This document shows positions 39,538 through 63,011 of a stretch of DNA of 64,000 nucleotides, in pieces; position 1 is the first letter of the stretch; every line of letters starts with the position of its first letter. The DNA is from a bacterium (lineage in GTDB: Bacteria > UBA8248), in NCBI GenBank assembly GCA_965207065.1, contig OZ242260.1, positions 1,376,001-1,440,000 on the forward strand, in the 5' to 3' direction. Made by a program: the position numbers and the translations under genes. Below the pieces are notes generated by a model. The model was not told the origin of the DNA. It saw only the letters and a program-made list of their open reading frames with translations, and did not search any database.

Positions 39538-39546
39538 GTTGCCTCC

Positions 39547-41865: not shown

Positions 41866-41898
41866 GCGGGAATCCTGCGTCTGCCCGGTCGGCGCTTT

Positions 41899-44261: not shown

Positions 44262-44343
44262 GTCAGCTCCTCAACAGTGGGCATATTGAAACCCTTGAAC
44301 CGGAGGCAATTTTATCCTCGAATCCATGAACCTGCAAGGATTT

Positions 44344-45645: not shown

Positions 45646-45719
45646 GGATGTCTTCTCCATTTTCGCGGGCCTTGGCCGAACGTGCATTTTACCGCCGGGC
45701 TGCTGTCTGCATATTCTGG

Positions 45720-48662
45720 TCAGGCGATTTGCCTTTTGATCAACTCCTTGAATACCCCGTCGACCTCCTTGAGTTCGTTGAAGGTACCGCTTTGAACGAC
45801 TTTTCCGCCTTGCAGCACGTAGATGCGGTCGGCCTGTTCCAGCGTGGACAGGCGGTGGGCGATGATGAGCCGGGTGGAAGTCAGGTCGGCAAGGTTCCGC
45901 ATTACCTTGGCCTGGCTTTCGTTGTCCAGCCAGTTCGTCGCCTCGTCAAGCAGCATGATTCGCGGGCTGCCGATCACCGAGCGGGCGATCGTGATGCGCT
46001 GACTCTCGCCGCCCGAGAGGACGGACCCGCTGGCGCCCACCATCGTCATCATGCCCATGGGCATGTCCCTGATTTGGGCTTCGACTTCGGCGGTCCGGGT
46101 CGCCGCCCACACTTCCTCGGTCCCCACCGCATCATGGTGGCTGACCAGATTGTCCCAGAGATCTTGTGGATGGAGTCCAACGGATTGCGGCACCGCTCCA
46201 ATTTTCCGGCGCACCTGTTTCAGATTCAGGTGCCTCAGGTCGCGTCCGTCGTAATACACCGCACCGGCGGCCGGCCAGTCGATGCCGAGCGCGAGCCGGA
46301 ACAGGGTGCTCTTGCCGGCGCCGGACTCACCGGCAATCGCGATGAATTCGCCGGGACGGGCGTGAATCGTGACGTCGTCGAGGATCAACGGACCGTCGGG
46401 ATCGTAGCGGAAGGAAATGCGGTCGAACAGTATTTCACCGCCCAGGAATTCAACCGGCTCTCCTTCCGTCACGGTTTCAGGAACGGCGGAGAGAAGCGGG
46501 CGCATCTGCTCGAACGCCGGCCGCATGGCGGCAATGGCGCCGAAGGACTCGCCGAGCCGGGCGATGGCGGACTGGAAAACGATAAAGACCGTGTAAACGA
46601 CGAGAAAATCGCCGACCGGTATGTCCCGGTCTCCCGTCGCCGCCACCGCGAAAAGCAGAACCCCGCCGGCAAAAAAGGGAAGCGCGGCGCCGAATGCCCG
46701 CGAATGTCCCTCAAGCGCGCCCAGTTCAATCTCTGCGCGTTTCTGCTCGCGATAATCCCTCGCCCAGATGGCATAGGCCGACCCTTCCGCATTATCCATT
46801 CGCAGCTTGGAGATGCCTCCCACGAGCTGGAACAGCCGACCGGCTACACGCCGCGCCGCGCTGATCATCCGCCCATAAGGTGAAATCTGGCGCAACCCGA
46901 GGACTACGGCGACCAGCAGCGAAGCCAGGCTGAAGACGAGGGTGATGAGGCCGAGGGTGGCGTCGTAGAAGAAAATGACGCCAAAAACCGGAAGCAGAAA
47001 AATAATCGACAAAAAGCTGTTGGCGACGATTCCCCGCAAGCCGTCGCGAAGGTTCTGGAACGTCATCCCCGACATTGCCAGATCTCCGGCGGGATGGCGG
47101 TGCAGAATGCTTGACGGAAGGCGCATGAGACGGTCCCAGAAGGCGGCTTCGACCCGGGAAGCCGAGCGCCCCTCGAGCCGCATCATCGCCGTGCTTTGGA
47201 ACAGTTGCAGGAGAGCGCCGAGCAGACCGAACGCCGCTAACGCCACGGCGACGGTATAGAGCGTTCCTGTGCTTCCGCCCGCTAAAATTTCATTCGCAAC
47301 GAATCCGAGCGCGAGCGCCGGCAGCAGCTTGATCATGCCGTATGGAAGCCCGGCAATGACCAGACGCGCCAAATCCGCGGCCGACCCGCGCAGGGCGATT
47401 CTTAGCAGGTCTGCCAGTTTCACGTTCTCCGGCGGCAATGGCCGATAGAACATCCAGGCTTCTCCCTCCAGCGCGCCCGCGCGGTCCGCCGTGACCCGGC
47501 GGCTGCGTTTGCTGACCGGGTCGATTTCCCGGTATCGCCCGAACATTCCCGGCAACAGCGCCACTGGCTGGCCGTCCTCGGCGCGGAACGCCAGCATCGC
47601 GTTGCTGTCGCCGCGCCACCAGCTGCCCTCGGCTTTGAACCGCACGCGCCGGGCGCGTAAGCCCGACGCATCGAGAACCTCGACGAGGCCGACCGGAGAA
47701 TCGGAAAGTCCCGCACGCGCCGGAATCTTGAAATCGATTCCTTCATGGCGGCCGATGAGTTGCAGGGCATCCGCCAGCGCCGTGTCCTCGACACTGGCGT
47801 CCCGGTCGATCGGAAGGTCATAGATGTTGAACAGCCGCTGCCGCGCGGCTTTTTCCGCCGTGCGGCGGCTGGTAGTCCGCGCGCGTTCGAGATTGACGTC
47901 ATCGACCACGACCAGTCGGCGGTTCAGGCGTTCCAGGGAAAAAGCAACCGCGTGAAAAGAGGCGAGCGCCGGCAGCAGCGTGCCTTGCTCCGCCAGGGTT
48001 TCGGTTGATAAGCCCGTCAGCGTCGCTTCGTCGAACAAGGCGAGCCAGCTTGTGCGCGTCAGCGGAATAACGGCGTCGTGCGGGCCGCTCGCCTCCGCCA
48101 GTTCCGCCGGGTCGACGATACCCATGAACAGGCTCGCGCCGCGCGGCGGTTCGGATACCCATACCACGCCGCGCCGTACGGATAGCGTACAAGGGGCCAG
48201 GGTCTGCGTCCGACCGGGTTCGGCCAGCGCGGTCGGGCGCGGAAGGGGGCTTGCGAAACGGGACAGTGTTTCAGCAATGGCGATCAGCCAGGTATCGGTC
48301 TGTTCCGCCAGTTCCGCCGGATGGACCCGGGACAGCAGGGAAGCCGGCAGACGTTTCAAAATGGTGCCCGGCAGTCCTTTGGCGATGATGCTGAGCGTAT
48401 TGTCTTCGTCACCCTCTCGCTGGTCCGGCGACACGCCCGGCAGCAGCCAGCCCGACTCCCGGCGCAGCAGATGCTGCGGCGCCGCCTGCTCCACCCCGTC
48501 CTTGAGTTCGGCGAGGAACAGATTGACGGCGCCCTGATCGATGAACCAGACGCTGTCCGGGTCGTCGAGCTTGACCGGCAGGTTGCCGGCGCAGGGTACG
48601 GACGCGCCGAAGCGAGCGGCGAGTTCGGCGATGGACGTGTATTCCGGCTTTGTGTGCTGCAT
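45720..48662 (-). CDS. NHLP bacteriocin export ABC transporter permease/ATPase
   Basis: LDASGLRARRV, GESGAGKST, LSGGESQR, LDEAT, IAHRLST. Confidence 0.9.
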   Translation of the reverse strand: MQHTKPEYTSIAELAARFGASVPCAGNLPVKLDDPDSVWFIDQGAVNLFLAELKDGVEQAAPQHLLRRESGWLLPGVSPDQREGDEDNTLSIIAKGLPGTILKRLPASLLSRVHPAELAEQTDTWLIAIAETLSRFASPLPRPTALAEPGRTQTLAPCTLSVRRGVVWVSEPPRGASLFMGIVDPAELAEASGPHDAVIPLTRTSWLALFDEATLTGLSTETLAEQGTLLPALASFHAVAFSLERLNRRLVVVDDVNLERARTTSRRTAEKAARQRLFNIYDLPIDRDASVEDTALADALQLIGRHEGIDFKIPARAGLSDSPVGLVEVLDASGLRARRVRFKAEGSWWRGDSNAMLAFRAEDGQPVALLPGMFGRYREIDPVSKRSRRVTADRAGALEGEAWMFYRPLPPENVKLADLLRIALRGSAADLARLVIAGLPYGMIKLLPALALGFVANEILAGGSTGTLYTVAVALAAFGLLGALLQLFQSTAMMRLEGRSASRVEAAFWDRLMRLPSSILHRHPAGDLAMSGMTFQNLRDGLRGIVANSFLSIIFLLPVFGVIFFYDATLGLITLVFSLASLLVAVVLGLRQISPYGRMISAARRVAGRLFQLVGGISKLRMDNAEGSAYAIWARDYREQKRAEIELGALEGHSRAFGAALPFFAGGVLLFAVAATGDRDIPVGDFLVVYTVFIVFQSAIARLGESFGAIAAMRPAFEQMRPLLSAVPETVTEGEPVEFLGGEILFDRISFRYDPDGPLILDDVTIHARPGEFIAIAGESGAGKSTLFRLALGIDWPAAGAVYYDGRDLRHLNLKQVRRKIGAVPQSVGLHPQDLWDNLVSHHDAVGTEEVWAATRTAEVEAQIRDMPMGMMTMVGASGSVLSGGESQRITIARSVIGSPRIMLLDEATNWLDNESQAKVMRNLADLTSTRLIIAHRLSTLEQADRIYVLQGGKVVQSGTFNELKEVDGVFKELIKRQIA

Positions 48663-50872
48663 CAGCCCGACCTGACCAGCTTGTAGTACGCACCGTCCCG
48701 ATCCGCGATCAACTCGTCGTGGGTGCCGCGTTGCACGGTGACGCCTTTGTCGAGCACGATAATTTCATCGCAATCCCGCACGGTGCTCAGCCGGTGCGCC
48801 ACGATCAGGCAGGTGACGCCGCGCCGCCGCAGGGCTTCATCGACTAGTTCCTCCGTTACGGCATCGAGTGCGCTGGTGGCCTCGTCCAGAATGAGCACCG
48901 TCGGATTGCCCACCAGCGCACGGGCGATTTCCAGGCGTTGCTGCTGGCCGCCGCTGAAATTCGCGCCGCCTTCTTCGACGAGGGTCGAGTACCCTTGCGT
49001 TCGAAGCAGGATTTCGTCATGGATTTGGGCATCCCGTGTGGCGGCGAAGAGGACTTCATCCGGGACGGCCGGGTTCCACAACGTGATGTTGTCGCGCAGG
49101 GACGCGGAAAAGAGCACGATCTCCTGGTCCACCATGGATATGGACTGCCGCAGCACTTCCTCTGGAATCTGATCCCGCAGATGATCATCAAACAGGATTT
49201 CGCCCGACCAGGGCGGATAGACACCCGATACCAGCCGCGCCAGTGTCGACTTGCCGGAACCGCTTGGACCGACCACGGCAACGCGCTGCCCCGGCTTGAT
49301 CACGAGGTTGAAGTCCTTTATCAAAGGTGGCCGGCTCTTGTTGAAACCGAAGGTGAGGTTTCGCAGTTCGAGCTGGCCTGCAAGCTGGAGCCGACCGTTG
49401 AACGTGGGGATTGACTCCGGTTCCGGATTTCGGCGACTGAAAACGGGGTCTTCATCGGTTTTGGAGATGTCCTCGAGACGTTGCATATCGGTTTCGAGCG
49501 CCTGGCGGTTTTCGGCAAACTCCAAAAAACGCCTGACGGGGGCCAGAAACATCTCGGCCAGGATGTAGAACCCGACCAGCGTCCCCAGGGTCATTTCTCC
49601 GGTCATGACCAAACCGCCCCCGATGCCGAGAATCGCCGCGCTGCGGAGCGCGTCGACCAGCCCCGGAAGCGAGGTGCTGATGGAGCCCAGTTCGGAATAG
49701 AGCTGGCGCGCACGCAACTCACGCGCCTGTTGACCGCTCCAGCGCGAAAAGAAACGGTCATCCGATCCCGTCATGCGCAGATTGTCGGAATGACTCAGCA
49801 TCTGCATGCCGAGGCCGATCAGCAGTCCCTGCTCGCGCCTCATCGCCTGGCTTCGGACAGCCCGAAGGGCGTTGAGAAAGTGGGCTAGCATTCCGTGCAG
49901 AAGGGCCAGCAAAAGCACGATCAGCGTGAGCAGGATATCGTAGGCGAACATCGCCATGAGCAACACCACGCTCATCGCCATGTCGATAATGAGAACCAGA
50001 AACTGGTCCGCCAGATTCCTGGCGATTCTGTCGGTGGACGAGACCCGGTCGGTCAGGTCGCCCGCCAGTCTGTGTTCGAAAAACTCCACCGGCAACCGCA
50101 GCAGACGTGACACGCTGCGACTGAAGCCAATCACCGATACCCGGACGGCGAGCCGCTTGAGGAATCGGTGCTTGAACAGGGACAGGACGTATACCAGGAG
50201 GCCGCCGCCGAGCAAGGCGGTCACCAATCCGCCCCAGGATCCGTGTTTTTCGATGACATCGTCGACGAAAACACCGAGAGATGCGGGAATAATCAACGTC
50301 AATAGCGTCAGCATGAGTCCGCAGGCAATCACCCCGGTAAGCAAATTCCATGATCCGGCGAGCAGGGCGCCCAATTGCCTGAACAAGTCGGGCCGCTCGC
50401 CCCCGGGCTTGAAATCAGCGCCGCGCTTGAAGCGAAGCGCAATGCCGCTGTAGTCCTTGTAGAACTCTTCGGCGGAAATCCTGCGCCGCCCCGTGGAAGG
50501 GTCATTGAGATGGAAATGACGGCCATCGAATCCATCGAGGACGACGAAATGGCTGAATTGCCAGAACAGAATCAAAGGCAACTGCAGCATTTTCAGTTGA
50601 TCGGCGCGTGCGCTGAGCCCGCTGCATTCGAGGCCATAGTGTCGGGAGGCGCGCAAGATGCTTGCGGCGCTGCTGCCGTCCCGGCTCACCTCGCATTTTT
50701 CGCGCAATTCGGTAAGCGGCACCCATCGCCCGAAGTAGGCCAGTACGATGCCGAGACAGGCGGCGCCGCATTCCGACGCGTGCATCTGCAACAGAATCGG
50801 TGTGGTCACCTTCCGTTTCGATACGTCCGAAGAGGCCTTGTCCCCGGCGTCTTTGGAAGCGGCCGTCGGCAT
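48662..50872 (-). CDS. NHLP bacteriocin export ABC transporter with C39 peptidase domain
   Basis: QMHASECGAACL, HFVV, LNDP catalytic motifs; GPSGSGKST, FSGGQQQR. Confidence 0.93.
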   Translation of the reverse strand: MPTAASKDAGDKASSDVSKRKVTTPILLQMHASECGAACLGIVLAYFGRWVPLTELREKCEVSRDGSSAASILRASRHYGLECSGLSARADQLKMLQLPLILFWQFSHFVVLDGFDGRHFHLNDPSTGRRRISAEEFYKDYSGIALRFKRGADFKPGGERPDLFRQLGALLAGSWNLLTGVIACGLMLTLLTLIIPASLGVFVDDVIEKHGSWGGLVTALLGGGLLVYVLSLFKHRFLKRLAVRVSVIGFSRSVSRLLRLPVEFFEHRLAGDLTDRVSSTDRIARNLADQFLVLIIDMAMSVVLLMAMFAYDILLTLIVLLLALLHGMLAHFLNALRAVRSQAMRREQGLLIGLGMQMLSHSDNLRMTGSDDRFFSRWSGQQARELRARQLYSELGSISTSLPGLVDALRSAAILGIGGGLVMTGEMTLGTLVGFYILAEMFLAPVRRFLEFAENRQALETDMQRLEDISKTDEDPVFSRRNPEPESIPTFNGRLQLAGQLELRNLTFGFNKSRPPLIKDFNLVIKPGQRVAVVGPSGSGKSTLARLVSGVYPPWSGEILFDDHLRDQIPEEVLRQSISMVDQEIVLFSASLRDNITLWNPAVPDEVLFAATRDAQIHDEILLRTQGYSTLVEEGGANFSGGQQQRLEIARALVGNPTVLILDEATSALDAVTEELVDEALRRRGVTCLIVAHRLSTVRDCDEIIVLDKGVTVQRGTHDELIADRDGAYYKLVRSG

Positions 50873-50873
50873 C

Positions 50874-51425
50874 TTATGATCGCCTCATTCGAAACAGCGT
50901 GATCGGAGATTGCCTGCCGAGCTCGATGACGAACCGGCATTTCCTGCCCTTCAGGGAATCCGAATCCACACTTTCTTCGAGCGCGATATCGACGCGGAGC
51001 AGGGACACCGGCGCCGCGGACTCAAACGCCGCCTGCCCCCCGGAGAAAGGCACGGCGGAAATCGCCCTGACCTTTCCGGCAAGCGCGCCTGTTTTTCCGT
51101 CCGCCGTATCCGGCTCTATCACCACCGGCATCCCGGCCTCGATACGTGGAGCGATATCGCTGTCGACCCAGACGAGGGCCCGCACGGACCGGCCGCCCCC
51201 GGGCGAGTTTTCGCCTTGCTCGACCACTACGCCGTCCACCGCGAGACTACGGGCCACGCTGCCAAAGAAGAGCCATGCACAGAGGATGCACAGAACAAGA
51301 GCGATTGCGGCGACAAGCAGACGCTCCCGCGGCGTTGAAATCGTCAGCAACCGGTCGAGTTGCTCGCGTTCTTCCTTCGCTTCGGCGACAATATTATGAA
51401 AAGAATCGAATGGATTATTGAACAC
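50874..51425 (-). CDS. Short NHLP secretion (HlyD-like) accessory protein
   Basis: EQLDRLLTISTPRE + TM helix, C-terminal QSPITL; much shorter than a typical membrane fusion protein. Confidence 0.65.
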   Translation of the reverse strand: MFNNPFDSFHNIVAEAKEEREQLDRLLTISTPRERLLVAAIALVLCILCAWLFFGSVARSLAVDGVVVEQGENSPGGGRSVRALVWVDSDIAPRIEAGMPVVIEPDTADGKTGALAGKVRAISAVPFSGGQAAFESAAPVSLLRVDIALEESVDSDSLKGRKCRFVIELGRQSPITLFRMRRS

Positions 51426-51857
51426 GACGGCAGGGCAACCCTCTCGTTGTAATCAAGCAAGGTAAAAAAACATCATACCATCCGGTAAAAAGAAATGTAA
51501 TTCCACACAATCCGGCTCAAGAATCGTCGGCGTTTGGGAAGCAGTGGATTTCCGATGGGCGGAACAGGCCGTTCGTTTACTCGTTTTCGGAATCAGTTGC
51601 TCCGGGGAGCCGGCCACGAACCGCCCGCGCCTCTCGCGCCGCAACATTTCTCGAGGTCGCCCTCACGGCGACTGACATACAAAATCACAGGGCGGGGAAT
51701 TTTTCAACGGCCTTGTTTGGACGCCCTGCGCAGCAGGCAGACGATCTTCTCCGGTTTGCAGAACTTTCCCGTCATCCTCGGTCCAGCATTTGCGAACCCG
51801 GGGGAACCGATCCTACGGCGCGGAATCAACCTTCGTGAAACTTTACGGACCCGGCGC

Positions 51858-53150
51858 CTAGCAGCTCAGCCCCTGGGACATCTGGCAATAACTGGAGAGA
51901 GGGAAAAACGCCAACGTCCGATTCCAGTCCGATTTGTCAATGACCGACTGGTTCATCAGTTCGATCATTTCGTCGAATTTGCGGAGCGCGTCGCAATCCA
52001 CCACCTCGGGATCCACCACCTTGCGGTGTCGAGGCCAGGCGTTGTCTCGAGCGTGGCGCCAGAATCCGCTGTCGTATCTGGAGCCACAGGAATAGTGCCA
52101 ACCGACGAATAAGCCGAAGCAGAGCATGGTATTGGTGAGGAATCGATTGACCACCAGAGCATCGCGTTCGAGATATTCTACCGAACGGTTAAGGCGTAAA
52201 TGGAGAACCATCCCGACCTCTACCTGTGCGGATACGATCGCCGTTGCTTCGAGGGGTTCCATGAAGGCGGCTGCGTTGCCGATGCGAGCCACCGCGCCAT
52301 CGTACATGTGACGATGGATAAAATTGGGAAACGGAATGACGGCGCGCTGCTCGAACTCCGATACGCCATCGGTCTCGAGGAAAGCGTCGAAATCCGATTC
52401 GACTTCGTCGAGGCCGGATACGTCGCGGTTGAAGATGTACCCGTAGGATGTGTGCGCTGTAAGCGGAATAACGACTATCCAACCGTGCGGACGCGCAACC
52501 GCGCGGGTATAGGTAGGTTGCAGAAACGGGCCGTCCTGCTCTTTTTTGACGATTGCAGGGCAGCGGCGGATGACGGCCGTATTCGTGGGGATGAAAGAGA
52601 GGTCGATGTGCCGGTCCGGGTCTAGTTCTGCGGGAAAGCCCCGGGCATCAAAGACCAAATCGTAGCGTTCCGCCGGCCGGCCCTCGAATTCCACTTGCGC
52701 GCCGCCTTCCACCCTGGTGATACCGGTTACTTTCGCGTCGATGCGGCTCGCGCGCGTGCTTTCATGCAGCAGGTCCGCCATCAAGTCGACGGACAGATGG
52801 TAGGCGTAGGACACCTGTTGCGGCGTGAAATAGTGGGTGAAGTCGCGATTGCGCCGACCCCATCCCTCGAATGTTACACCGTACTTGCGCGTTCCTTTCA
52901 GGCGCTGCTGGACTGTTTCATGGGGAAGATTCGTAAGTTGACACAAATCCTGCACGAGACTCGGCCAGCTGCCTTCGCCTACTCCGAGGGCCGGGATGCG
53001 CGAATCATAGATGTGATGCAGCTCGTGGTCGCTCTCGGGTAGAAGACGAGTCACATTGGCGGCCGCAAGGGACCCTGCGGTTCCCCGCCCGACAACCGCG
53101 ATCTTCCGTAATGATTTAGCGCCCGGCTGTATCATCCTACTCACTTTCAC
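51858..53150 (-). CDS. srpI: Flavin-dependent tryptophan halogenase family protein (peptidyl-Trp brominase-like)
   Basis: VVGRGTAG, GVGEGS, TRKYGVTFEGW (catalytic Lys), GWIVVIPL, IGNAAAFMEPLEATAI. Confidence 0.85.
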   Translation of the reverse strand: MKVSRMIQPGAKSLRKIAVVGRGTAGSLAAANVTRLLPESDHELHHIYDSRIPALGVGEGSWPSLVQDLCQLTNLPHETVQQRLKGTRKYGVTFEGWGRRNRDFTHYFTPQQVSYAYHLSVDLMADLLHESTRASRIDAKVTGITRVEGGAQVEFEGRPAERYDLVFDARGFPAELDPDRHIDLSFIPTNTAVIRRCPAIVKKEQDGPFLQPTYTRAVARPHGWIVVIPLTAHTSYGYIFNRDVSGLDEVESDFDAFLETDGVSEFEQRAVIPFPNFIHRHMYDGAVARIGNAAAFMEPLEATAIVSAQVEVGMVLHLRLNRSVEYLERDALVVNRFLTNTMLCFGLFVGWHYSCGSRYDSGFWRHARDNAWPRHRKVVDPEVVDCDALRKFDEMIELMNQSVIDKSDWNRTLAFFPLSSYCQMSQGLSC

Positions 53151-53508: not shown

Positions 53509-53895
53509 TTATTCGGGGCGCAGCAGGCTTTTGGCCTTATCCCCTTCCGGCGTCACGGCCAGCACCTCGAGACTCGGCCGCGCGGGGCTCCTCGTGAGGA
53601 GGAGTTCCACGGGCTCGTCGAGCGCCATGATCTCGTGCACCTCGCCGGGGCGGAACTGCACCAGATCCCCCGGCGCGGCTTCCAGAATCTCTCCTTCCAC
53701 GGCGATGCGGAGCCCGCCCTTCAGGAGATAGAGGAACTGCTCGTCATGGTGATAATGCGGGTTGGAATGGCCCCTCGCCTCCATGCGGAAATATCCGATG
53801 GTGGTGTGAGCGCCATCGACCCACGCGGCGTCTGCGGTCACGTAGTCGGCGGCCTTTCCCTGGTTCTGAGCGGCGAGATTTCTGTAAATCGGCAT
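53509..53895 (-). CDS. Cupin domain protein
   Basis: HSNPHYHHDEQFLYLLKG, PGDLVQFRPGEVH. Confidence 0.85.
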   Translation of the reverse strand: MPIYRNLAAQNQGKAADYVTADAAWVDGAHTTIGYFRMEARGHSNPHYHHDEQFLYLLKGGLRIAVEGEILEAAPGDLVQFRPGEVHEIMALDEPVELLLTRSPARPSLEVLAVTPEGDKAKSLLRPE

Positions 53896-54046
53896 GGAAT
53901 GAACTCCTGTAGATGAGGTGATGACCGAAGATGGAACCTCAGGCGTATTCTAACGGCATGGACTCGCAATCTGTCCAGCCCCCATGTATATTTGTGCGGC
54001 AAAACAGGCGTTTCCCTCACTTCAAAAAGTTATTCGGAGGCATTTC

Positions 54047-55081
54047 GTGAGCGCCCCATCGGTGGATGAATTCGAGTATTTCTTCGATAAACCCTGGTCG
54101 GACGGCCTGCCGGTCATCCCCCCGACGGAAGAGCGTCTGGGCCAAATGCTTGCAGGAACGAGCCGTGATCCGGACGAAGTAATCGGCGACGTACCTCCGT
54201 TACTGGCGCAGGCGGACGTTCGGACCATTGCCGTTCATGCCATTATGGCAGGGTGCAAGCCGGCGTATATGCCCGTTCTCATCGGGGCCGTGGAAGCCAT
54301 TCTGGAGGAAAAGTTCAACGTGGGCGGCGTGCAGGCGACGCTCTCTTGCGCTGCTCCACTTTTGATAGTTAACGGCCCTTACGCCAGGGAAATCGGTTTA
54401 CACGGCGGGCTGGGCTGTTTCGGCCCCGGGAATCGCGCCAACGCGACGATTGGCCGCGCCATCAGGCTTTTGCTCCTCAATATCGGCGGCGGAATTCCGG
54501 GTATCACCTCGATGAGCACGTTCTCGCAACCGGGGAGGTTCACGTACTGTATCGCCGAAAATGAAGCGGAAAGCCCCTGGGAGTCTCTCGCTCAGACGAA
54601 TGGTTTTGATGCGGAGGATAACGTTGTCACCGCCGTGCATGTGGAAGGTCCCGTCATGTCCTGGGATGACGTGAGCGACGACCCCGAGCGGATGTTGCCC
54701 TCCATCGCGGACACCATGTCGCATCTGGGTTCGTGGAATTGTTGGGCCAGCACCGATTTGGTGGTCGCGATGAGCCCGCAGCAGGCCGCGATTTGCGCAA
54801 AGAGGGGGTATTCAAAGGCGGATGTCCATGGACGCCTTTGCGAAATCGCAGGCCGTTCGGTGGGCGAACTCAAAACGGGAGGTCATTTCCGGGAAAATCG
54901 TATTCAGGATTTTCCGATCCCCGTCGATCTGGATGATGACGATGCGTTTGTTCCGACGATTAAAGAAGCCCGGAGACTGCTCTTGATCGTGGCGGGCGGG
55001 GTTCCGGGGCCGATAACGGCCGTGATGCACGGCTGGAACGGCAGCAGCCGTTCGGTTTCTCGCGCATTTGAATCGTCATGA
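54047..55081 (+). CDS. UGSC-associated large-domain protein, tandem paralog 1
   Basis: WSDGLPVIPPT, AIMAGCKP, GCFGPGNRANATIGRA, ENEAESPW; GTG start after GGAGG. Confidence 0.82.
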   Translation: MSAPSVDEFEYFFDKPWSDGLPVIPPTEERLGQMLAGTSRDPDEVIGDVPPLLAQADVRTIAVHAIMAGCKPAYMPVLIGAVEAILEEKFNVGGVQATLSCAAPLLIVNGPYAREIGLHGGLGCFGPGNRANATIGRAIRLLLLNIGGGIPGITSMSTFSQPGRFTYCIAENEAESPWESLAQTNGFDAEDNVVTAVHVEGPVMSWDDVSDDPERMLPSIADTMSHLGSWNCWASTDLVVAMSPQQAAICAKRGYSKADVHGRLCEIAGRSVGELKTGGHFRENRIQDFPIPVDLDDDDAFVPTIKEARRLLLIVAGGVPGPITAVMHGWNGSSRSVSRAFESS

Positions 55082-55104
55082 TATCCACTTCTTTCAATGG
55101 GTGA

Positions 55105-56139
55105 ATGGCTTTGAGCGAACCTCTGGATGAATTCGAGTTTTTTCTGGAAAAACCCTGGTCGGACGGCTTGCCCGTCGTTACCCCGACCGAAGAGCGCATT
55201 GAGCGCATGCTCTCGGGCACGAAGAGAAGTCCAAGCGAGTTCATAGGTCTCGTTCCTCCGGCCATGGGCGAGGCCACGGTCCATAGTGTGGCGGTCCATG
55301 CGGTAATGGCCGGCTGCAAGCCCGAGTATTTGCCGATCGTTCTCGGCGCCACCTCCCTTATGCTTCGCGATGAGTTCAACACGAACGGCGTGCAGGGCAC
55401 GATGCACGGCGTAGCGCCCCTCATGATCGTTAACGGCCCCTATTCCGAGCAAATCGGGGTTCACGGAGGAAATGGCTGCTTTGGCCCCGGCTTCAGATCC
55501 AACGCTTCCATCGGCCGCGCCATTCGCCTGATTCTGATGAACCTGGGCGGGGGCATTCCGGGTGTTTCTTCCATGACGATTTTCGGCACGCCGCTGCGCT
55601 ATACCGCGTGCGTAACGGAGAACCTTCAGTTTCATCCCTGGGAGACGCTCGCTGAATCCAGAGGATACGGATCGGATGAAAATGTGATCACCATGGCCAT
55701 GGTGGAAAGTCCGCGCCTGACCTTCGATGACGTAAGCGAGGAGCCCGAAAGGCTGCTCCGGGGAATCGCCGATGCGATGACGGGCCTGGGCTCATGGAAC
55801 ATGCACGCGCCCAGGACCGATATGGTCGTCGCCATGAATCCCCAGCATGCGAAAATTTGTTCCGAGGGCGGTTTTACTCGCTCGGACGTGCATCGGCGTC
55901 TTTGCGAATTGGCGGGCCACAAGGTGAAGGATCTGAAGCGGGGCGGCAACTGGCGGCGCGAGCGCGCGCTGGATATGTATATTCACGTAGACCCCGATGA
56001 CGATGAATTTTTCGTTCCCGTCATCAAGGACCCCCGTGATCTCCACTTGATCGTTGCGGGCGGCTGGGGATCGGGGAGTGCGGTCTGCCACGGCTGGAGC
56101 GGTGGCAGCCGCGCCGTTCATGGGGCCTATGAAGTGTAG
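55105..56139 (+). CDS. UGSC-associated large-domain protein, tandem paralog 2
   Basis: WSDGLPVVTPT, AVMAGCKP, GCFGPGFRSNASIGRA. Confidence 0.82.
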   Translation: MALSEPLDEFEFFLEKPWSDGLPVVTPTEERIERMLSGTKRSPSEFIGLVPPAMGEATVHSVAVHAVMAGCKPEYLPIVLGATSLMLRDEFNTNGVQGTMHGVAPLMIVNGPYSEQIGVHGGNGCFGPGFRSNASIGRAIRLILMNLGGGIPGVSSMTIFGTPLRYTACVTENLQFHPWETLAESRGYGSDENVITMAMVESPRLTFDDVSEEPERLLRGIADAMTGLGSWNMHAPRTDMVVAMNPQHAKICSEGGFTRSDVHRRLCELAGHKVKDLKRGGNWRRERALDMYIHVDPDDDEFFVPVIKDPRDLHLIVAGGWGSGSAVCHGWSGGSRAVHGAYEV

Positions 56140-56180
56140 CGCCGGAATCTCCACGACAGTCAGAGTGGTATCAGATTTCT

Positions 56181-57197
56181 ATGGATGAATTCGAATTTTT
56201 CTTTCAAAAATCCTGGTCGGACGGCCTGCCGGTAATCCCACCAACCCAGGAACGGATGGCCGCCATGCTCTCGGGCACGAGACTCGGGGCTTCCGAAATC
56301 ATTGGCCTGGTGCCGCCCCTCATGGGGGAGGCCGGCGTCGAAGCGGTTGCCGCGCACGCCGTGATGGCGGGGTGTGAACCTTCGTATATGCCTGTCGTCA
56401 TTGCTGGGCTTAGAGCGCTTCTTGCGCCGGAACTCAACTTGAACGGCGTACAGGGCACCATGCACAGCGCAGCCCCTCTAATCATCGTGAATGGTCCATA
56501 TGCGAAAATAATCGGACTGCATGGCGGAACGGGATGCTTTGGTCCGGGATTTCGGGCGAATGCGACAATCGGCCGCGCCATCCGGCTTATTCTCATGAAC
56601 CTGGGCGGCGGTGTGCCGGTTTTCGCCTCGATGAGCACGTTCGGTTCACCTGCCAGATATACGTTTTGTATCACCGAGAATGAAGCGGAAAGTCCCTGGG
56701 AGCCGTTGTCCGTCGCGCGAGGGTTTCATCGGGATGACGATGTTGTAACCGCCGTGATGACGGAAGCGCCTCAAGGATATATCGATGATTATTCCAAGGA
56801 CCCGGAATCTTTTTTTGTGGGCTTGGCGGATAAAGTATCCACCCTGGGCTCGCTGAACATCTGGCTGAAAACCCAGGTGGTCGTTGCTTTGGGTCCGGAT
56901 CATGCGCGCATGTGCGCAGCGGCTGGTTTGAGCAAGGAAGATGTTCATCGCCGGATTATGGAACTTGCGTGTAGACCCCTGGGAGAGCTGAAAAAATCGG
57001 GCTATTGGCGAGAGGAGATGATAGCCAAGTGGCCATTTCACGTGGCCCTGCAGGATGATTCTTTTATGGTACCGGCGATCAAGGATGAAGACGATTTGAT
57101 ACTTCTCGTCGCAGGGGGTACGCCCGGACCGGTTACGTTCGTCATGCCCGGCTGGGTGGACGGCAGCGAGGCGGTATCGGCGGACTATCAACCATAA
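56181..57197 (+). CDS. UGSC-associated large-domain protein, tandem paralog 3
   Basis: WSDGLPVIPPT, AVMAGCEP, GCFGPGFRANATIGRA. Confidence 0.82.
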   Translation: MDEFEFFFQKSWSDGLPVIPPTQERMAAMLSGTRLGASEIIGLVPPLMGEAGVEAVAAHAVMAGCEPSYMPVVIAGLRALLAPELNLNGVQGTMHSAAPLIIVNGPYAKIIGLHGGTGCFGPGFRANATIGRAIRLILMNLGGGVPVFASMSTFGSPARYTFCITENEAESPWEPLSVARGFHRDDDVVTAVMTEAPQGYIDDYSKDPESFFVGLADKVSTLGSLNIWLKTQVVVALGPDHARMCAAAGLSKEDVHRRIMELACRPLGELKKSGYWREEMIAKWPFHVALQDDSFMVPAIKDEDDLILLVAGGTPGPVTFVMPGWVDGSEAVSADYQP

Positions 57198-57232
57198 GCC
57201 TTCCTGCCAGGCTTGCTTTTGAGGATGAACGC

Positions 57233-58252
57233 ATGGATGAGTTTGAGTTTTTCTTTGATAAAGAATGGTCGGACGGCCTGCCTGTCGTGACCCCGACGGA
57301 AGAGAGGATTGGTCCGATGCTCTCGGGCACGAGGAGGGAGCCGGGCGAAGTACTCGGCCACGTGGCTCCGGCGGGCGGGGAACTCAGTATACAAGGGGTG
57401 GCGGCCCACGCCGTGATGGCGGGTTGTAAGCCTGAATACATGCCGGTGCTGATAGCCGGCCTGGAAGCGCTTCTCGATGAGCGTTTTAACGTAAATCTGA
57501 TTCAGGCCACGACGAGCGCGGGCGCTCCTTTTCTGTTGGTGAATGGTCCTTATGCAAGGGAAATCGGGCTGCACGGGGGCGTAGGCTGCATGGGACCCGG
57601 CTACCGCGCGAACCTGACCATCGGCCGCGCCGTCAGGCTCATCATGATGAATGTGGGAGGAGGCATTCCCGGAATCACCTGTCTCGGCGGTTTCGGAGGT
57701 CCCTGGCGAAGCACTTTTTGCATCATGGAGAACGAGGAGGAATCCCCTTGGGAGTCGTATGCGGAATCGAAAGGGTATTCCAGGAGCGATAACGTGGTGA
57801 CCATGATTCCTCTCGAAGGTCCGGTGCAGGTATGGGACGATGCGAGTCTGACTCCTGACCGGCTCCTGACGACGGTTGCCGATATGATGTCGGCATTGGG
57901 CGGTCCCAATATGTATCGGCAAGCGGATATGGCGGTTGTCCTGGGTGCGCAACATGCGCATCTGTGCGCCGACGCCGGGCTGACCCGCAGCGATGTCCAT
58001 CAAAAATTATTGGAAACGGGTGGGCGTACTATCGGGGATATCAAGCGCGGCGGCATCTGGCGAGGCGAGAAAGGCGCGGATCGCTGGCCATTTCCCGTGG
58101 ATGTGAATGATGATGATTTTTTTGTGCCTTCGGTCGGGGAGCCCGACGATCTTCATTTGATCGTCGCGGGGAGCAGGGGTTCACCTTCCAGCATGGTCAT
58201 GCACGGAATTACCGTGGCGTGTCGGGCTGTGACTAAAAAATTTGACGTGTGA
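57233..58252 (+). CDS. UGSC-associated large-domain protein, tandem paralog 4
   Basis: WSDGLPVVTPT, AVMAGCKP, GCMGPGYRANLTIGRA. Confidence 0.82.
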   Translation: MDEFEFFFDKEWSDGLPVVTPTEERIGPMLSGTRREPGEVLGHVAPAGGELSIQGVAAHAVMAGCKPEYMPVLIAGLEALLDERFNVNLIQATTSAGAPFLLVNGPYAREIGLHGGVGCMGPGYRANLTIGRAVRLIMMNVGGGIPGITCLGGFGGPWRSTFCIMENEEESPWESYAESKGYSRSDNVVTMIPLEGPVQVWDDASLTPDRLLTTVADMMSALGGPNMYRQADMAVVLGAQHAHLCADAGLTRSDVHQKLLETGGRTIGDIKRGGIWRGEKGADRWPFPVDVNDDDFFVPSVGEPDDLHLIVAGSRGSPSSMVMHGITVACRAVTKKFDV

Positions 58253-58375
58253 AAAATTTCTTTTCCGGGTGGGTTCGGAGCGTAGGCTGGATTTTGCATT
58301 CAGTATCAAATTCGAAGGCAGAATCTATCTCATCTTAATTTGTTAAAGTTGGAATGTTTTAGTGCGCTTCTTTAC

Positions 58376-58409
58376 AAAAGAGCCCCGGCATTATTGCCGG
58401 GGCTCTTTT
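58376..58409. terminator. Bidirectional rho-independent terminator
   Basis: AAAAGAGCCCCGGCA ttat TGCCGGGGCTCTTTT between convergent genes. Confidence 0.85.
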
Positions 58410-58423
58410 GTGATCGACGCTTG

Positions 58424-60685
58424 TTAATGGCCGTTGCTATTGCCGTTTTTCTTCATGACCGCCCGGCAAACACGCTCGGGCGTAATGGGCAAATCGTAGA
58501 CTTCCGTGCCTATCGCATCATTGATGGCGAGGGCGACGGCGGCAGGCGCATTATTGCATGGAGGTTCTCCGACGCCGCGTGCGCCATATGGGCCTGCGCC
58601 CTCTCCACATTCAAGAACAACAGACTCAAACTCACCGATATCCGAGGAAGTGGGAATCAGATACTCGTGAAAGCTTTGTGATCGGCAGTCTCCTTCCACC
58701 ATGGTGATTTCCTCGTGCAGCGCATAGCCAATCCCCATCACCGCGCCGCCTTCGAATTGCCCCTCCACGCTTTGAGGATTCAGCGCGCGCCCGACGTCAT
58801 GGGAGGCGATGTGCTTCAAGAGATTCACTTCGCCGGTTTCGATATCGACTTCCACTTCGCTCGCATGAACGCCAAAAGTGTAGTCCGACCATCCGCCCAT
58901 GCCGTTCATATATCGCTCCGGATTCTCGTATTCATGGCCCGGCATGTTGTAGCCATGTGTGCAATGTAGCGCCTCACCCATTTTTTTGGCTTCGCCGGCC
59001 GCTGCACCGACGCCGACCCTTCTCTCGGGAGCGGAGGCCACCCACGCCTCGCCGCCTCCCACGCGAATGTCCTCTGCTGCAGCTTCGAGCAACGAGGCAG
59101 CGCCTTTGGTCACGGCTTTTCGAACCTCATCAGCGGCAAGTTGAACGGCGTGCCCCGCCATGAGTGTCTGGCGGGAACCCGCAGTGATGCCCGAGAGTGG
59201 CGTAGTAGCTGAATCGGACAAACGGGTGGAAACCTGATCGAGCCTGAGCCCCAGGGTTTCAGCCGTGATGCTTTGAAGGGTAGCGCCCTGGCCGGCGCCT
59301 ATATCCGGCGCGCTCACACGTACCACGGCGCTGCCATCCGGCTCGAGGTGTACCGCCGCATTCGCGTCGTCATTCGGCCTTCCGTAGCCGGTAATGTTCG
59401 CGGCCGCCGCCCGGCCGATACGTTTTCCCGGAGCTGGTTCTGTGGGTTTACCCAGGGCCTGTAGCGCGCTGTCGAGGCATCCTTCCAGGTTCGGTTCGTA
59501 AGGTATCTTCTGTCCGGTCGGCAGTTCCTGTCCTTTCTGGATGAAATTTTTCCGCCTGAATTCGTACTTGTCCAACCCGAGGGCATCTGCAACCAGGTTC
59601 ATTTGAGTCTCATATGCGAAGCAGACCTGGTTTGATCCAACGCCGCGCATCGCGTTGGTGATGGGATTGTTCGTGAGATAGCCGTGCGCACGAATTTTTA
59701 CGTTGGGTACATCATAAGGGCCCGCGGCGATGCACATCGCGCCCAGGAGGAACAAATTGGATTTATACGGATAGGCGCCAGCATCTCCTACGATATCCGC
59801 CTGAACGGCCAGGATTTTCCCGTCCCTGGTCGCTCCTGTTTTGTACTTCATATAGAAAGGATGTTTTTTCGAGGTGTTTCTAATGCCGTGCTCGCGGCCC
59901 AATACCATGACGGCGGGCCTTTGCGTATGCCAGGTGAGCAGCGCCAGGTAAGGTTCTACGGTCAGCATGCCCTTGGCGCCGAACCCGCCGCCGACGTAAG
60001 TGCCGAGGTGCCGGACGCGGCTATGCGAGATTCCTAAAATCGCCGCAATGGCGCGGTAGTATTCGATAAGCTGTGTGCCGACGCGGATGGTGATGACGCC
60101 GTCTTCTTCCATCCAGGAAGTACCGGAGGCCGGTTCCAGGAAGGCGTGTTCGGCAAGTTGCGTGGTGTATGTTTTCTCAATCACCACGTCGGCTTCGTCA
60201 AATGCTGTCTTCAAGTCTCCGCGAGTAACCTCAAAATCACATGCTTGTCGTTTTTCGGCGCTTGTTTCATCGTGACGCGTTGTCCACACGCCCTCTTCCG
60301 CCTCGATTTCCACTTCAATGGCCGCTATCGCGGCATCAAGCGCTTCTCTGTTTTCGGCTCCTACGATGGCGAGAGCGTCTCCGGTGAATTCAATTTTATC
60401 TTCCACCAGAACAGGCTGATGGGGCAGGCCCGGTGTGCCGGAGCCGAATCGCGCGTTTGTGCCCGGAATATCCTTTGCAGTCAGAATGGCGGCTACGCCC
60501 GGGATTTTTTCGGCTTTTGAAGTGTCGATTTTTTTCAGGCGGCCGACCGGGATGGGTGTAAACAATACGCCGCACTGCAGAGCCCCTGCAGGAACTGCAT
60601 CTTCTCCGTAGGGCATAGAGCCATCCGCTTTCGGAATCGCGTCGTATCGAACATTCGACTTGCCGATGATATCGTAATCGGCCAT
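58424..60685 (-). CDS. Xanthine dehydrogenase family molybdopterin-binding subunit
   Basis: HAFLEP, VGGGFGAK, AMRGVG, DIGAG, HDVGRALNP..VEGQFEGG, GARGVGEP; start MADYD after AAGGAG. Confidence 0.92.
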   Translation of the reverse strand: MADYDIIGKSNVRYDAIPKADGSMPYGEDAVPAGALQCGVLFTPIPVGRLKKIDTSKAEKIPGVAAILTAKDIPGTNARFGSGTPGLPHQPVLVEDKIEFTGDALAIVGAENREALDAAIAAIEVEIEAEEGVWTTRHDETSAEKRQACDFEVTRGDLKTAFDEADVVIEKTYTTQLAEHAFLEPASGTSWMEEDGVITIRVGTQLIEYYRAIAAILGISHSRVRHLGTYVGGGFGAKGMLTVEPYLALLTWHTQRPAVMVLGREHGIRNTSKKHPFYMKYKTGATRDGKILAVQADIVGDAGAYPYKSNLFLLGAMCIAAGPYDVPNVKIRAHGYLTNNPITNAMRGVGSNQVCFAYETQMNLVADALGLDKYEFRRKNFIQKGQELPTGQKIPYEPNLEGCLDSALQALGKPTEPAPGKRIGRAAAANITGYGRPNDDANAAVHLEPDGSAVVRVSAPDIGAGQGATLQSITAETLGLRLDQVSTRLSDSATTPLSGITAGSRQTLMAGHAVQLAADEVRKAVTKGAASLLEAAAEDIRVGGGEAWVASAPERRVGVGAAAGEAKKMGEALHCTHGYNMPGHEYENPERYMNGMGGWSDYTFGVHASEVEVDIETGEVNLLKHIASHDVGRALNPQSVEGQFEGGAVMGIGYALHEEITMVEGDCRSQSFHEYLIPTSSDIGEFESVVLECGEGAGPYGARGVGEPPCNNAPAAVALAINDAIGTEVYDLPITPERVCRAVMKKNGNSNGH

Positions 60686-60879
60686 TTGTCTGCTCCTTAA
60701 GGTAAGAGGATATCCGTGAATTAGATTTGATTCTGCCAAATTTCGGCGAAACTGAGAAGCGGATAAAACATCATTTGTTTTTTTCATATAAAATTGATTG
60801 GGCTGATATCGTAGACAAGGAATAAATTGCGGGATATGATTTGACTTCGGTTGAATTCACATATCAATTGGAGAAAACC

Positions 60880-61410
60880 ATGGCGAACGGAATGGGATTC
60901 ATTGATCCGACGGCGGGAGGGTCGGCCGCGCGAATCGAGCTTGCGCAAAGGCCCGGCGATCTTTCGGGTAAGGTGGTGGGGCTCCTCGACAACACCAAAG
61001 AACAAGCGGATATCATTTTGGAAACCTTGGGGAATGCCCTCCGCGAGCAATACGACGTGGCCAGAGTCATTTCGATGCGAAAAGAGCATTACTCGAAGCC
61101 TGCCACTGATGAAATGATCGAAGAAATGGCCCAGGAGGTGGATGTGGCGATAGCCGCATTGGGAGGCTGAGGCTCCTGCACGTTGTGCAGTGTGCACGAC
61201 ACGGTTGAATTTGAAAAACGGGGCATTCCTTCAACGACCATCATCACCGAGGCGTTCAAGAACGCGGCGGACTTTCAATTCCGTGGCAAGGGCATGGAAG
61301 GGCATCCTTATATTCAGTTGCCTCATCCGGTCAGCAATTTGCAGCCTGATGAAATGAGAGACACGACGCTGAAGTTTGTTGAAGAAGTGGCCGGCCACCT
61401 GAAAAGCTGA
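60880..61410 (+). CDS. Stand-alone UGSC selenoprotein (Sec at TGA 61168-61170)
   Basis: ORFs 60841-61170 and 61183-61410 are in frame: AIAALGG-U-GSCTLCSVHDTVEFEKRGIP. Hairpin GTTGTGCA-GTG-TGCACGAC starts 11 nt after the TGA. Confidence 0.92.
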
Positions 61411-61452: not shown

Positions 61453-62235
61453 GTGCGCGAATTTGAAACAATTTCCTATACGGAAGAAAATGGATTGGCG
61501 GTAGTGAAGTTTAACCGCCCGGAGAGTCTGAACGCGATCAGTTTCAAGATGGCGGAAGAATTCGTGGAATTGGCGCGAACCCTGGCCGACGCGGGGAATG
61601 TGCGTGTGGTCATTCTTACTGGAGAGGGACGTGGTTTCAGCACGGGCCGCGACCTGAAAGAAAGCACCACGCATACGAAGGAGATGGCCGATCAATACCA
61701 GCGCTATGTGATGACGGCGACGTCTCTATGGGCACGCTTGCCAATGCCTACCATCGCTGCGATCAACGGCCATACGTTCGGCTGGGGCGTCGAAATTACA
61801 TTAGTATGCGATATCAGACTGGCCGCTGAAGAAGCCACTCTTTGTTTTCCGGAATGCAGCCTTGGTATTTTCCCGGGGGCCGGCGGCGTAGTCTGGCTTC
61901 AAAGGATCATGCCGGCCGGTCAGGCGAAGGAATTGGTTTACACGAGCAAGCGTATCGATGGAAATGAAGCCGAGCGCATCGGCTTGGTGAATAAGGCGCA
62001 TCCGCTGGATGTGCTGATGGATGAAGCGACAGCCATCGCTGAGAAAATCAGGGACAATGGCCCCTTGGGTGTTCGTGGCGCGAAAAAAGCAATTGATCAG
62101 ACGCTCGATATGCCGCTCTCTCAGGCTATCGAATTTTCAAATGCCCTCAGGTTGCCGTTGAATCACACCAAGGATTTCGCCGAGGCGCTGCAGGCGTTCA
62201 AAGAGAAGAGGAAACCCGTATTTACCGGAGAATAA
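61453..62235 (+). CDS. Enoyl-CoA hydratase/isomerase family protein
   Basis: NRPESLNA, FSTGRDL, PTIAAING, PECSLGIFPGAGG, FKEKRKPVFTG. Confidence 0.92.
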   Translation: MREFETISYTEENGLAVVKFNRPESLNAISFKMAEEFVELARTLADAGNVRVVILTGEGRGFSTGRDLKESTTHTKEMADQYQRYVMTATSLWARLPMPTIAAINGHTFGWGVEITLVCDIRLAAEEATLCFPECSLGIFPGAGGVVWLQRIMPAGQAKELVYTSKRIDGNEAERIGLVNKAHPLDVLMDEATAIAEKIRDNGPLGVRGAKKAIDQTLDMPLSQAIEFSNALRLPLNHTKDFAEALQAFKEKRKPVFTGE

Positions 62236-62309
62236 AGAAGTTGGAATTTCCATGAAACATAGAGCCTGTCCCATTTAGAGGACGGGCTTTTTGTTCATTG
62301 TGGCGGGAT

Positions 62310-63011
62310 ATGAACAGAAACCTCCTCATCACAGATAACGAATCCCAAGTCGCGAGCATTACCGTGAATCGGCCGGAAGCGCGAAATGCGTTCAATACGC
62401 CATTGATGGAAGCCATGTGTCTGGAGATGGGTGAAATTGAAATATCGCCTGATATTAAAGTCCTTATCGTGACGGGTGCGGGAAGCTCTTTTTCTTCGGG
62501 ACGCGACCTCAAGGAAAGCGCCACCCATACGAAAAAACAGGCGAAACGATTCATGATGTTGGGCGAACGGTGGAGTACGGCCCTTCGTGAACTACCCATC
62601 CCGACAATAGCAGCGGTGAATGGCCCCGCCTTCGGGTGGGGGATGGTGTTGATGCTCTCTTGCGATATTCGTGTTGCGGTGGACGACGCCGTTTTGGGTT
62701 ATCCGGAGACTGCGTTGGGAGTATTTCCTGGAGGAGACGCCACAGTTCGTCTGACGCGTCAGATTTTTGTTCCATCCGTGAAAGATCTAGTGCTCACGGG
62801 CAGAAGATTTGATGCGAAAGAGGGATATCGCTTAGGATTGGTGAATCGCATCACATCGCAAAGAGACCTGATGAGGGAAACTCGCGCTCTGGCGAATAAA
62901 ATTGCGCAACACCCGCCGGAGAGATTAAAAGCGATGAAGTCAAAGTTTTTGAAAATCGAAGCGATGCCGCGCTTTGGCCATTTGTCGGTAGCCGAGAAAG
63001 TCGATCGATGA
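62310..63011 (+). CDS. Enoyl-CoA hydratase/isomerase family protein (diverged paralog)
   Basis: NRPEARNA, FSSGRDLKE, PTIAAVNG, PETALGVFPG. Confidence 0.85.
   Translation: MNRNLLITDNESQVASITVNRPEARNAFNTPLMEAMCLEMGEIEISPDIKVLIVTGAGSSFSSGRDLKESATHTKKQAKRFMMLGERWSTALRELPIPTIAAVNGPAFGWGMVLMLSCDIRVAVDDAVLGYPETALGVFPGGDATVRLTRQIFVPSVKDLVLTGRRFDAKEGYRLGLVNRITSQRDLMRETRALANKIAQHPPERLKAMKSKFLKIEAMPRFGHLSVAEKVDR

Follow-up and report, generated by a model that had tools for sequence, protein, structure and literature searches.

UGSC is a predicted selenoprotein to which no function is assigned in the accessible parts of the papers that treat it (PMC2398784, PMC13188914, PMC9312934, PMC1976440). It is reported to rank among the selenoprotein families that are most abundant in the metagenomes of oceans and freshwater, with 255 genes in the Global Ocean Sampling (GOS) data (PMC2398784). 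A 2026 review still gives no function for it (PMC13188914), and a single fusion named “UGSC/Unknown_1” was put in print by Zhang and Gladyshev in 2008 (PMC2398784). Among the closest described systems are the Grd reductases, in which electrons from NAD(P)H are carried by TrxA and TrxB, encoded by genes that cluster with grdHI (PMC6716910). Here we analyzed a stretch of 64,000 nucleotides (nt) from a bacterium of the lineage UBA8248 (positions 1,376,001 to 1,440,000 of contig OZ242260.1), in the following called the window, which contains a UGSC gene close to four tandem paralogs of a protein family of about 340 amino acids (aa). We refer to this family as the partner, to its members in the window as P1 to P5, and to gene orders of partner (P) and UGSC (U) as P-U and the like. 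In bacteria and archaea alike, the UGSC and partner genes form an obligate pair, and the questions taken up below are what kind of enzyme system they form and how one UGSC protein relates to several partners.

The four paralogs of the array are placed head to tail on the forward strand, at 54047-55081 (P1, 344 aa), 55105-56139 (P2, 344 aa), 56181-57197 (P3, 338 aa) and 57233-58252 (P4, 339 aa), with gaps of 23, 41 and 35 nt between the genes. P1 begins with a GTG codon that has a GGAGG sequence 7 nt upstream; the ATG at 53984, which the first-pass annotation of this DNA had taken as the start, lies upstream in the same frame. Pairwise identities over the six pairs are 51-57%, and P2, P3 and P4 are 54-57% identical to P1. 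The UGSC gene is found on the same strand at 60880-61410, at a distance of 2.6 kb from the array, with a GGAG ribosome binding site before the ATG at 60880. It encodes a protein of 176 aa with the motif U-G-S-C, where the selenocysteine (Sec) is specified by the TGA at 61168-61170, and it belongs to the UGSC family according to both available profiles (PF24696, E 9e-51 and 172.9 bits with a cut-off of 25; NF041046, 148.6 bits with a cut-off of 125). The first-pass annotation had described this arrangement of four paralogs and a small UGSC protein, and it is real: the motifs DGLPxxxPT, AxMAGCxP and GxxxNxxIGRA are found in the paralogs, as are the strings QATLSC, QGTMHG, QGTMHS and QATTSA at one variable spot and GSWNCW, GSWNMH, GSLNIW and GGPNMY at another. 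Its emphasis on the cysteine of a “GCxGPG” motif was misplaced, as this residue is not conserved family-wide; the nearly invariant cysteines are instead that of the AGC motif (C71 in P2) and a second one ahead of an ENE motif (C169 in P2).

The same two modules occur in a natural fusion on the reverse strand at 34876-36486. The fusion protein has 536 aa and a Sec codon at 36192-36190, where the motif reads UGGC. Its UGSC domain matches PF24696 above the Pfam cut-off (E 1.6e-37, 129.7 bits) and scores 97.3 bits with the equivalog model NF041046, which is under the cut-off of 125, and its partner domain is 31% identical to P1, which bears out the earlier statement that both modules are joined in one chain. 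This is probably the same fusion as the “UGSC/Unknown_1” of the 2008 report, as judged from the text of that paper (PMC2398784). Only 4 nt downstream of the fusion gene, at 33838-34872 on the reverse strand, we found a fifth partner paralog, P5 (344 aa, 36% identical to P1), which is absent from the first-pass annotation and is followed by a gene for an FAD-dependent oxidoreductase (FAD_oxidored) and by a sugar-type ABC transporter.

The partner is a large family. It comprises 6,667 clusters at 50% identity and at least 5,324 proteins scored at E 0.001, and the source name of the entries that we saw was always “hypothetical protein”. None of P1 to P5 matched Pfam or NCBIfam at E 0.01, no chain in the PDB was matched in sequence searches with P2 and with a profile of 66 partner sequences, and in the ESM Atlas the clusters nearest to one homologue were without any Pfam family. 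In 74 diverse partners the residues D20, T28, C71 (the AGC cysteine), N133, R138, C169, E172 and W179, in P2 numbering, are invariant or nearly so. An AlphaFold2 model of P2 shows a single domain, with a predicted local distance difference test (pLDDT) score of 95.0 and a predicted template modelling (pTM) score of 0.93.

How tightly the two genes are coupled is apparent from the host genome, which holds 15 partner copies and 8 UGSC genes, every one of the latter with a single TGA. Six of the UGSC genes directly adjoin a partner, a seventh is fused with one and the eighth is the window gene next to the array, and all eight are less than 3 kb from a partner. For other species, 80 loci were gathered with the partner alone as query, and a same-strand UGSC gene stood beside the partner in 66 of them, with gaps below 300 nt in 66 of 69 cases and with the order partner-UGSC in 54 and UGSC-partner in 15 (66 loci). 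When the architecture of the top 150 representative partner clusters was recorded, fusions of UGSC and partner were found in 51 clusters and in both orders: 18 clusters have a full UGSC-partner chain, 29 start at the post-Sec half of UGSC, where the gene call was cut at the TGA, and 4 have a partner followed by a UGSC cut at the Sec codon. The partner is alone in 73 clusters, is joined to a second partner in 7 and has other extensions in 19.

The two genes are also present or absent together. In the phylum of the window, UGSC and partner are each found in 43 of 51 genomes, which are the identical set, and in the same 10 of 15 genera; in a sample of Halobacteria each is found in the same four of 121 genomes, and in a sample of Burkholderiales in the same six of 101, kin within these three lineages being not independent. 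Copy numbers follow one another in the Burkholderiales, with UGSC/partner counts of 1/1, 19/20, 6/8, 12/13 and 5/7, and with about 23 UGSC genes above the cut-off and at least 21 partners in the sixth genome. It is clear from these neighbor, fusion and presence data that the two modules belong together, as had been suggested from the single fused chain in the window. A Mantel test for co-divergence of the eight paralogous pairs of the host genome gave no signal (r 0.215, attained by 2,918 of 20,000 permutations). Three of the Burkholderiales (G179, G228 and G240) have from 12 to about 23 Sec-type UGSC genes per genome with matching partner numbers, which would be an unusually large block for one selenoprotein family in one genome. 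Where there are some 20 pairs in a genome they would make up a large share of its selenoproteome and probably represent a family of differing substrate specificities.

In the window genus the order P1-P2-P3-P4 with one UGSC gene is kept in all 12 genomes fetched, with an array-UGSC gap of similar size in each. Each of the four paralogs forms its own orthologue group, with median identities of 84-90% within the groups and 54% between them, and the P1 group is represented in all 13 of the genus genomes examined, at a median identity of 85%. The 23 columns that are specific for the groups cluster at P2 positions 95-98, 150-157, 193-202, 215-240, 277-286 and 327-328 and include the two variable spots pointed out in the first-pass annotation. 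The closest relatives of P2 elsewhere are 74% and 66% identical (loci L038 and L040), each adjoining its own UGSC gene, and those of P4 are 65-66% identical (L033, L034 and L036), the first two of these three also adjoining a UGSC gene. The UGSC proteins encoded beside these P2-type and P4-type partners are 59-72% identical to the window UGSC, as compared with 41% or less for all others, and this similarity fits a situation where one type of UGSC serves several partner types. Judged from these sequence relations, it is plausible that one UGSC type serves several interchangeable substrate-specificity partners.

The operons with the order P-U-P and the partner-partner fusions would fit equally well with a fixed hetero-oligomer, in which the tandem paralogs are different subunits of one complex built around a single Sec subunit, and we regard this as quite possible. 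P-U-P operons are present on six genomes or plasmids of haloarchaea (Halalkalicoccus, Halorientalis, Halostagnicola, Halosolutus, G120 and G123), the AGC cysteine is retained in either half of the two partner-partner fusions that were checked in full among the seven (P0123 and P0128), the fusion gene of the window is directly followed by a second paralog, P5, and the invariant gene order within the genus is likewise what a fixed complex would give. However, the 1:1 pairs are the commonest form of the system, in other taxa a partner of the P2 type or of the P4 type is found as the only partner beside a UGSC gene, and the relatives in another genus have three tandem copies, not four. All four paralogs of the window moreover retain both conserved cysteines, so none of them looks like a dead scaffold. 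In the neighboring genus the order is P-P-P...U in two genomes, and a third has three copies and a split fourth. In the latter (L189, G047:C167) the fourth tandem paralog is found at 3242-4257 in two overlapping pieces, which is probably a frameshift or an assembly error.

The first-pass annotation had aligned the Sec segment of UGSC by eye with the active site of glycine/betaine reductase B (GrdB). When a UGSC profile was aligned by hhalign with an alignment of 13 GrdB sequences from genomes of the window phylum, the two matched with a probability of 95.3% and an E value of 2.1e-8, with UGSC positions 80-179 on GrdB positions 332-428 and Sec on Sec, so that the proposed alignment holds for the C-terminal half only. 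Among 70 UGSC proteins, weak matches to NCBIfam models of the GrdB type were seen for 31 (TIGR01917), 20 (GrdF), 12 (TIGR01918), 11 (GrdH) and 2 (PrdB). The window UGSC itself scored 18.9 bits with TIGR01917, where the cut-off is 602.2, and its match is confined to positions 325-415; it is thus not a full-length selenoprotein B. The resemblance to GrdB, GrdF, GrdH and PrdB consists of homology over the C-terminal ~100 residues, with the E..G.P and HP motifs in common, and extends to trxB and trxA genes that are clustered with the grd genes as they are with UGSC and partner. UGSC differs from GrdB in its length of 176 aa, the ~330-aa N-terminal part of GrdB being missing, and in having a partner that is unrelated to GrdE and PrdA. 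Sequence searches of the PDB with UGSC, its family profile and the GrdB profile found nothing, and no solved chain of the GrdB/PrdB family was detected in them.

A model of the fusion P0236, a Cys-type protein (pLDDT 89.0, pTM 0.89), places the CGSC motif between a strand at 98-104 and a helix at 107-122 in a domain of repeated strand-helix units. In the modelled alpha/beta domain of UGSC, a helix begins at the Sec motif of GrdB type. A thioredoxin-like fold is guessed for UGSC in the 2008 GOS paper (PMC2398784); the P0236 model, by comparison, has strands alternating with helices and the motif at a helix start but no obvious thioredoxin topology.

Apart from UGSC, the host genome has a true GrdB-like/GrdE-like pair as well as three genes of the PrdB-like kind. 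The pair, at G000:C1:3091211-3096321 (L112, L133 and L169), consists of a GrdE-like gene and a GrdB-like selenoprotein with the Sec motif U-G-T-G-T, a variant without the usual second cysteine that is kept across the genus. The PrdB-like genes were seen as three short matches to Pfam GRDB near 1874185, 832095 and 1074907 of G000:C1 (L113-L115), and the first of these (L113), when read through its TGA as Sec, is a U-P-L-C selenoprotein.

The partner was compared with the same group of proteins. As a relative of GrdB it was rejected at the sensitivity of hhalign (0.6%), and as a relative of the GrdE/PrdA pyruvoyl proproteins (PF09338) it was rejected at this sensitivity as well, with 0.05% against a GrdE alignment and no Pfam match. 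By analogy with PrdA and GrdE we considered the idea that the AG-C site might be a point of self-cleavage yielding a pyruvoyl group.

A trxB or TrxB-like gene was found within 5 kb in 8 of the 18 plasmid or megaplasmid loci fetched from cultured organisms. The gene order is trxB-TctC-SDR-partner-UGSC in Variovorax sp. SRS16, partner-UGSC-trxB in Roseovarius sp. THAF8, trxB-trxA-partner-UGSC in Arthrobacter sp. ERGS1:01 and UGSC-partner-Pyr_redox_2 in Haloterrigena turkmenica, and such a gene is present within the same distance in Variovorax boronicumulans and, as detected by phmmer, in Neorhizobium, Halostagnicola and Halosolutus. A scan of 24 longer partner representatives furthermore showed cases where another redox domain takes the place of UGSC in a fusion: an AhpC/TSA domain of thioredoxin fold in two, one of which (P0224) has the motif CATC, a thioredoxin reductase (TrxR)-like domain with CAVC in one, and the catalytic domain of ferredoxin-thioredoxin reductase (FTR), with CPC..CPC..CHC, in one. 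Msr, Prx/AhpF and ArsC, which are cysteine reductases that depend on thioredoxin and have a reductant dedicated or fused to them, resemble the present system in having a conserved cysteine in the catalytic protein and a CxxC/UxxC, TrxR-like or thioredoxin-fold reductant as a neighbor or fusion. They differ from it in that no sequence relation was found, the partner being without a Pfam, NCBIfam or PDB match.

We consider it probable, though well short of certain, that UGSC and the partner make up one enzyme system, a selenol/thiol relay reductase that is fed by the thioredoxin system and has the partner as its predicted catalytic subunit. Electrons from NAD(P)H would reach the U-x-x-C pair of UGSC through a thioredoxin-reductase-like flavoprotein, either directly or by way of thioredoxin, and would then move on to the partner, which would bind a substrate of the small organic-acid type. 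The partner cysteine and the selenol could then carry out a two-electron reduction that leaves a Se-S bond, which would be re-reduced, and in the window genus a single UGSC gene would serve four partner paralogs of ancient divergence that share an operon. The system is best classed as a variant among the thioredoxin-linked reductases that depend on Sec, with a catalytic partner of no named family, the mechanism being what we infer. The first-pass annotation had proposed “a reductase or lyase”; the reductase half of this gains from the neighboring trxB and trxA genes and the fusions to redox domains, while nothing supported a lyase. Altogether its observation was confirmed and extended and its interpretation is partly supported.

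Several findings weigh against a thioredoxin-fed relay. A trxB-like gene was near only one of the 80 loci of other species (in Candidimonas), and none was found near the nine other UGSC/partner loci of the host genome or in the window. Three partner genes of the host genome and one in Haladaptatus are without a nearby UGSC gene. The UGSC domain of several fusions has lost both redox residues with the partner cysteines kept, so that the partner can apparently work without a redox-active UGSC, and the second cysteine is missing in some partners (P0135, P0245 and the fusion protein of the window itself). Finally, the neighborhoods of the two genes are heterogeneous.

Pfam scans of these neighborhoods found no third gene that is constant across the loci. 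Recurrent neighbors are carboxylate transporters of the tripartite tricarboxylate transporter (TTT) and tripartite ATP-independent periplasmic (TRAP) types, family III CoA-transferases, CoA-ester lyases, enoyl-CoA hydratases and acyl-CoA dehydrogenases, and further luciferase-like (flavin) monooxygenases (LLM), DUF6282 proteins and amidohydrolases; TauD (3 loci), phosphosulfolactate synthase (2 loci), RidA and aconitase X each occur in some loci. The operon of Halorientalis is the most coherent one, with the order DUF6282-LLM-CoA transferase-CoA ester lyase-partner-UGSC-partner-TRAP. Such neighbors suggest catabolism of small organic acids without naming a particular substrate, and it is to this type of metabolism that the gene context points. 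On the plasmids pVEu of Vibrio europaeus (L191) and pSPTER of Sporomusa termitida (L192) there is a protein of 561-574 aa with a C-terminal partner domain that adjoins genes for aconitase X and DUF126; the N-terminal part of the Sporomusa protein matched UGSC weakly (28.3 bits), that of the Vibrio protein not at all.

Some of these neighbors bear on a chemistry of the GrdB/PrdB style, in which the Sec of UGSC would itself be the catalytic nucleophile and would break a C-N or C-S bond in a substrate that the partner holds. Amino acids, imino acids or organosulfur acids would be examples of such substrates, and the chemistry would be that of the glycine and proline reductases. The homology of UGSC to the Sec domain of GrdB and the clustering of trxB-trxA with the pair as in grd operons would both be expected on this account, and it would give a role to the genes for aconitase X and DUF126 that accompany the fusion on the Vibrio and Sporomusa plasmids, to the ornithine cyclodeaminase family, RidA and class V aminotransferase proteins and the S15, M17 and M28 peptidases that recur in some loci, and to the sulfonate-type neighbors TauD and phosphosulfolactate synthase. 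Still, we find it unlikely: the partner resembles neither the pyruvoyl proproteins nor GrdB in the comparisons given above, Cys replaces Sec in whole lineages, some fusions have no redox pair at all, and none of the results indicates a carbonyl or pyruvoyl cofactor.

Less probable again is a repair or maintenance pair, where the partner would catalyze a reaction without redox chemistry, for example as an isomerase or hydratase, and UGSC would be a dedicated redoxin that keeps a sensitive cysteine in the partner active site reduced. The degenerate UGSC domains and the orphan partners, which show that a partner can exist without a redox-active UGSC, agree with this, and so does the fact that the AGC cysteine is invariant and the second one dispensable. 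The near 1:1 retention of the two genes and their fusion in 51 of the 150 representative clusters would however be unexpected for a maintenance factor, as would the dedicated trxB genes beside 8 of 18 plasmid loci and the replacement of UGSC by whole TrxR or FTR domains in partner fusions, and we therefore give this possibility little weight.

In bacteria a Sec insertion sequence (SECIS) is expected as a stem-loop just downstream of the UGA. Folding of the window gene gave such a hairpin at 61182-61200 on the forward strand, with an 8-bp stem and a GUG loop, that starts 14 nt after the U of the UGA. The fusion gene has the same 8-bp hairpin 14 nt after its UGA, with compensatory changes relative to the copy in the window UGSC gene. 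In an alignment of 47 TGA regions, the two of the window and 45 from other genomes, 85.4% of the cells were paired, the pair 23-29 being CG in 34 sequences and GC in 10, and the covariation was 0.203 versus 0.110 in shuffles, a value that none of 500 shuffles attained. Among the UGSC genes that adjoin partners in other species, 64 of 69 have the TGA and the other five have Cys at the same column. The Sec machinery on which the first-pass interpretation depended is also there: the genome holds selA, selB, selD and tRNA-Sec, each above its curated cut-off, and selD itself has an in-frame TGA. That the TGA is a true stop, and the “UGSC protein” two small open reading frames or a pseudogene, is next to untenable, for although gene callers do split or cut UGSC (in Paracoccus, and in the 29 and 4 shortened representative clusters), the protein is conserved on either side of the TGA or has Cys in its place, the hairpin covaries and the machinery is complete.

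Contigs from the RNA libraries of three studies traverse the TGA of UGSC, a hint that the gene is expressed, and such contigs give patchy cover of P1, P2, P3 and the molybdopterin subunit gene described below, DNA carry-over being possible in both cases. At 61167-61203 only the stretch of ~35 nt with the TGA and the hairpin matches RNA-library contigs of several studies; the flanks of these contigs are unlike the window, and they evidently come from other UGSC genes. The Sec codon and the hairpin are thus conserved at the nucleotide level across UGSC paralogs. A search of the window with Rfam found tRNA only, and no riboswitch was found by it.

With a partner at hand, an orphan selenoprotein becomes a testable enzyme system, in which a family of thousands of clusters is named in no domain library, and UGSC is newly tied to GrdB and to thioredoxin reductases in the same operon. 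Full-text searches of the literature outside subscription journals gave no mention of a conserved gene that accompanies UGSC, of homology to GrdB or of a link with trxB. Cys-type systems are present in the cultured hosts Arthrobacter sp. ERGS1:01, Roseovarius sp. THAF8 and Variovorax sp. SRS16 and in Haloterrigena, Halalkalicoccus and Natrinema species, which makes Sec insertion unnecessary for expression. Going further, and as a tentative proposal only, UGSC and the partner might add a third branch, of very large size, to the Sec-dependent “protein B” reductases, with a catalytic subunit of a new family, fed by the thioredoxin system and radiated into up to ~20 pairs per genome, each specific for its substrate, among aerobic heterotrophs (Burkholderiales, Dehalococcoidia, Rokubacteria and the window phylum), with Cys versions in haloarchaea. 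If this were true, selenol/thiol reduction or reductive cleavage of many organic acids would be a widespread and overlooked route of carbon turnover, and the abundance of UGSC among the selenoproteins of aquatic metagenomes would be accounted for.

Between the array and the UGSC gene of the window, on the reverse strand at 58424-60787, there is a gene for a molybdopterin subunit of the xanthine dehydrogenase family (MoCoBD_1, MoCoBD_2 and Ald_Xan_dh_C domains), which scores under all NCBIfam equivalog cut-offs. It is solitary, with no Fe-S or FAD subunit genes alongside. A promoter-like site was seen at 60812-60840, ahead of the UGSC gene, and the promoter and terminator scans otherwise gave counts at chance level. 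Immediately 3' of the UGSC gene follow two enoyl-CoA hydratase genes (61453-62235 and 62298-63011) and then an acyl-CoA dehydrogenase gene (from 63449), all on the forward strand.

Upstream of the array, on the reverse strand, the window contains a gene for a YcaO cyclodehydratase (39547-41865) and, not far from it, two large genes for ABC exporters (45720-48662 and 48662-50872), which have a bacteriocin-type look from inspection of their translations, as well as genes for a flavoprotein resembling tryptophan halogenases (51858-53150) and a cupin (53509-53895). The genes at 38419-53150 look, together with the cupin gene, like a biosynthetic cluster of the type that produces ribosomally synthesized and post-translationally modified peptides (RiPP).

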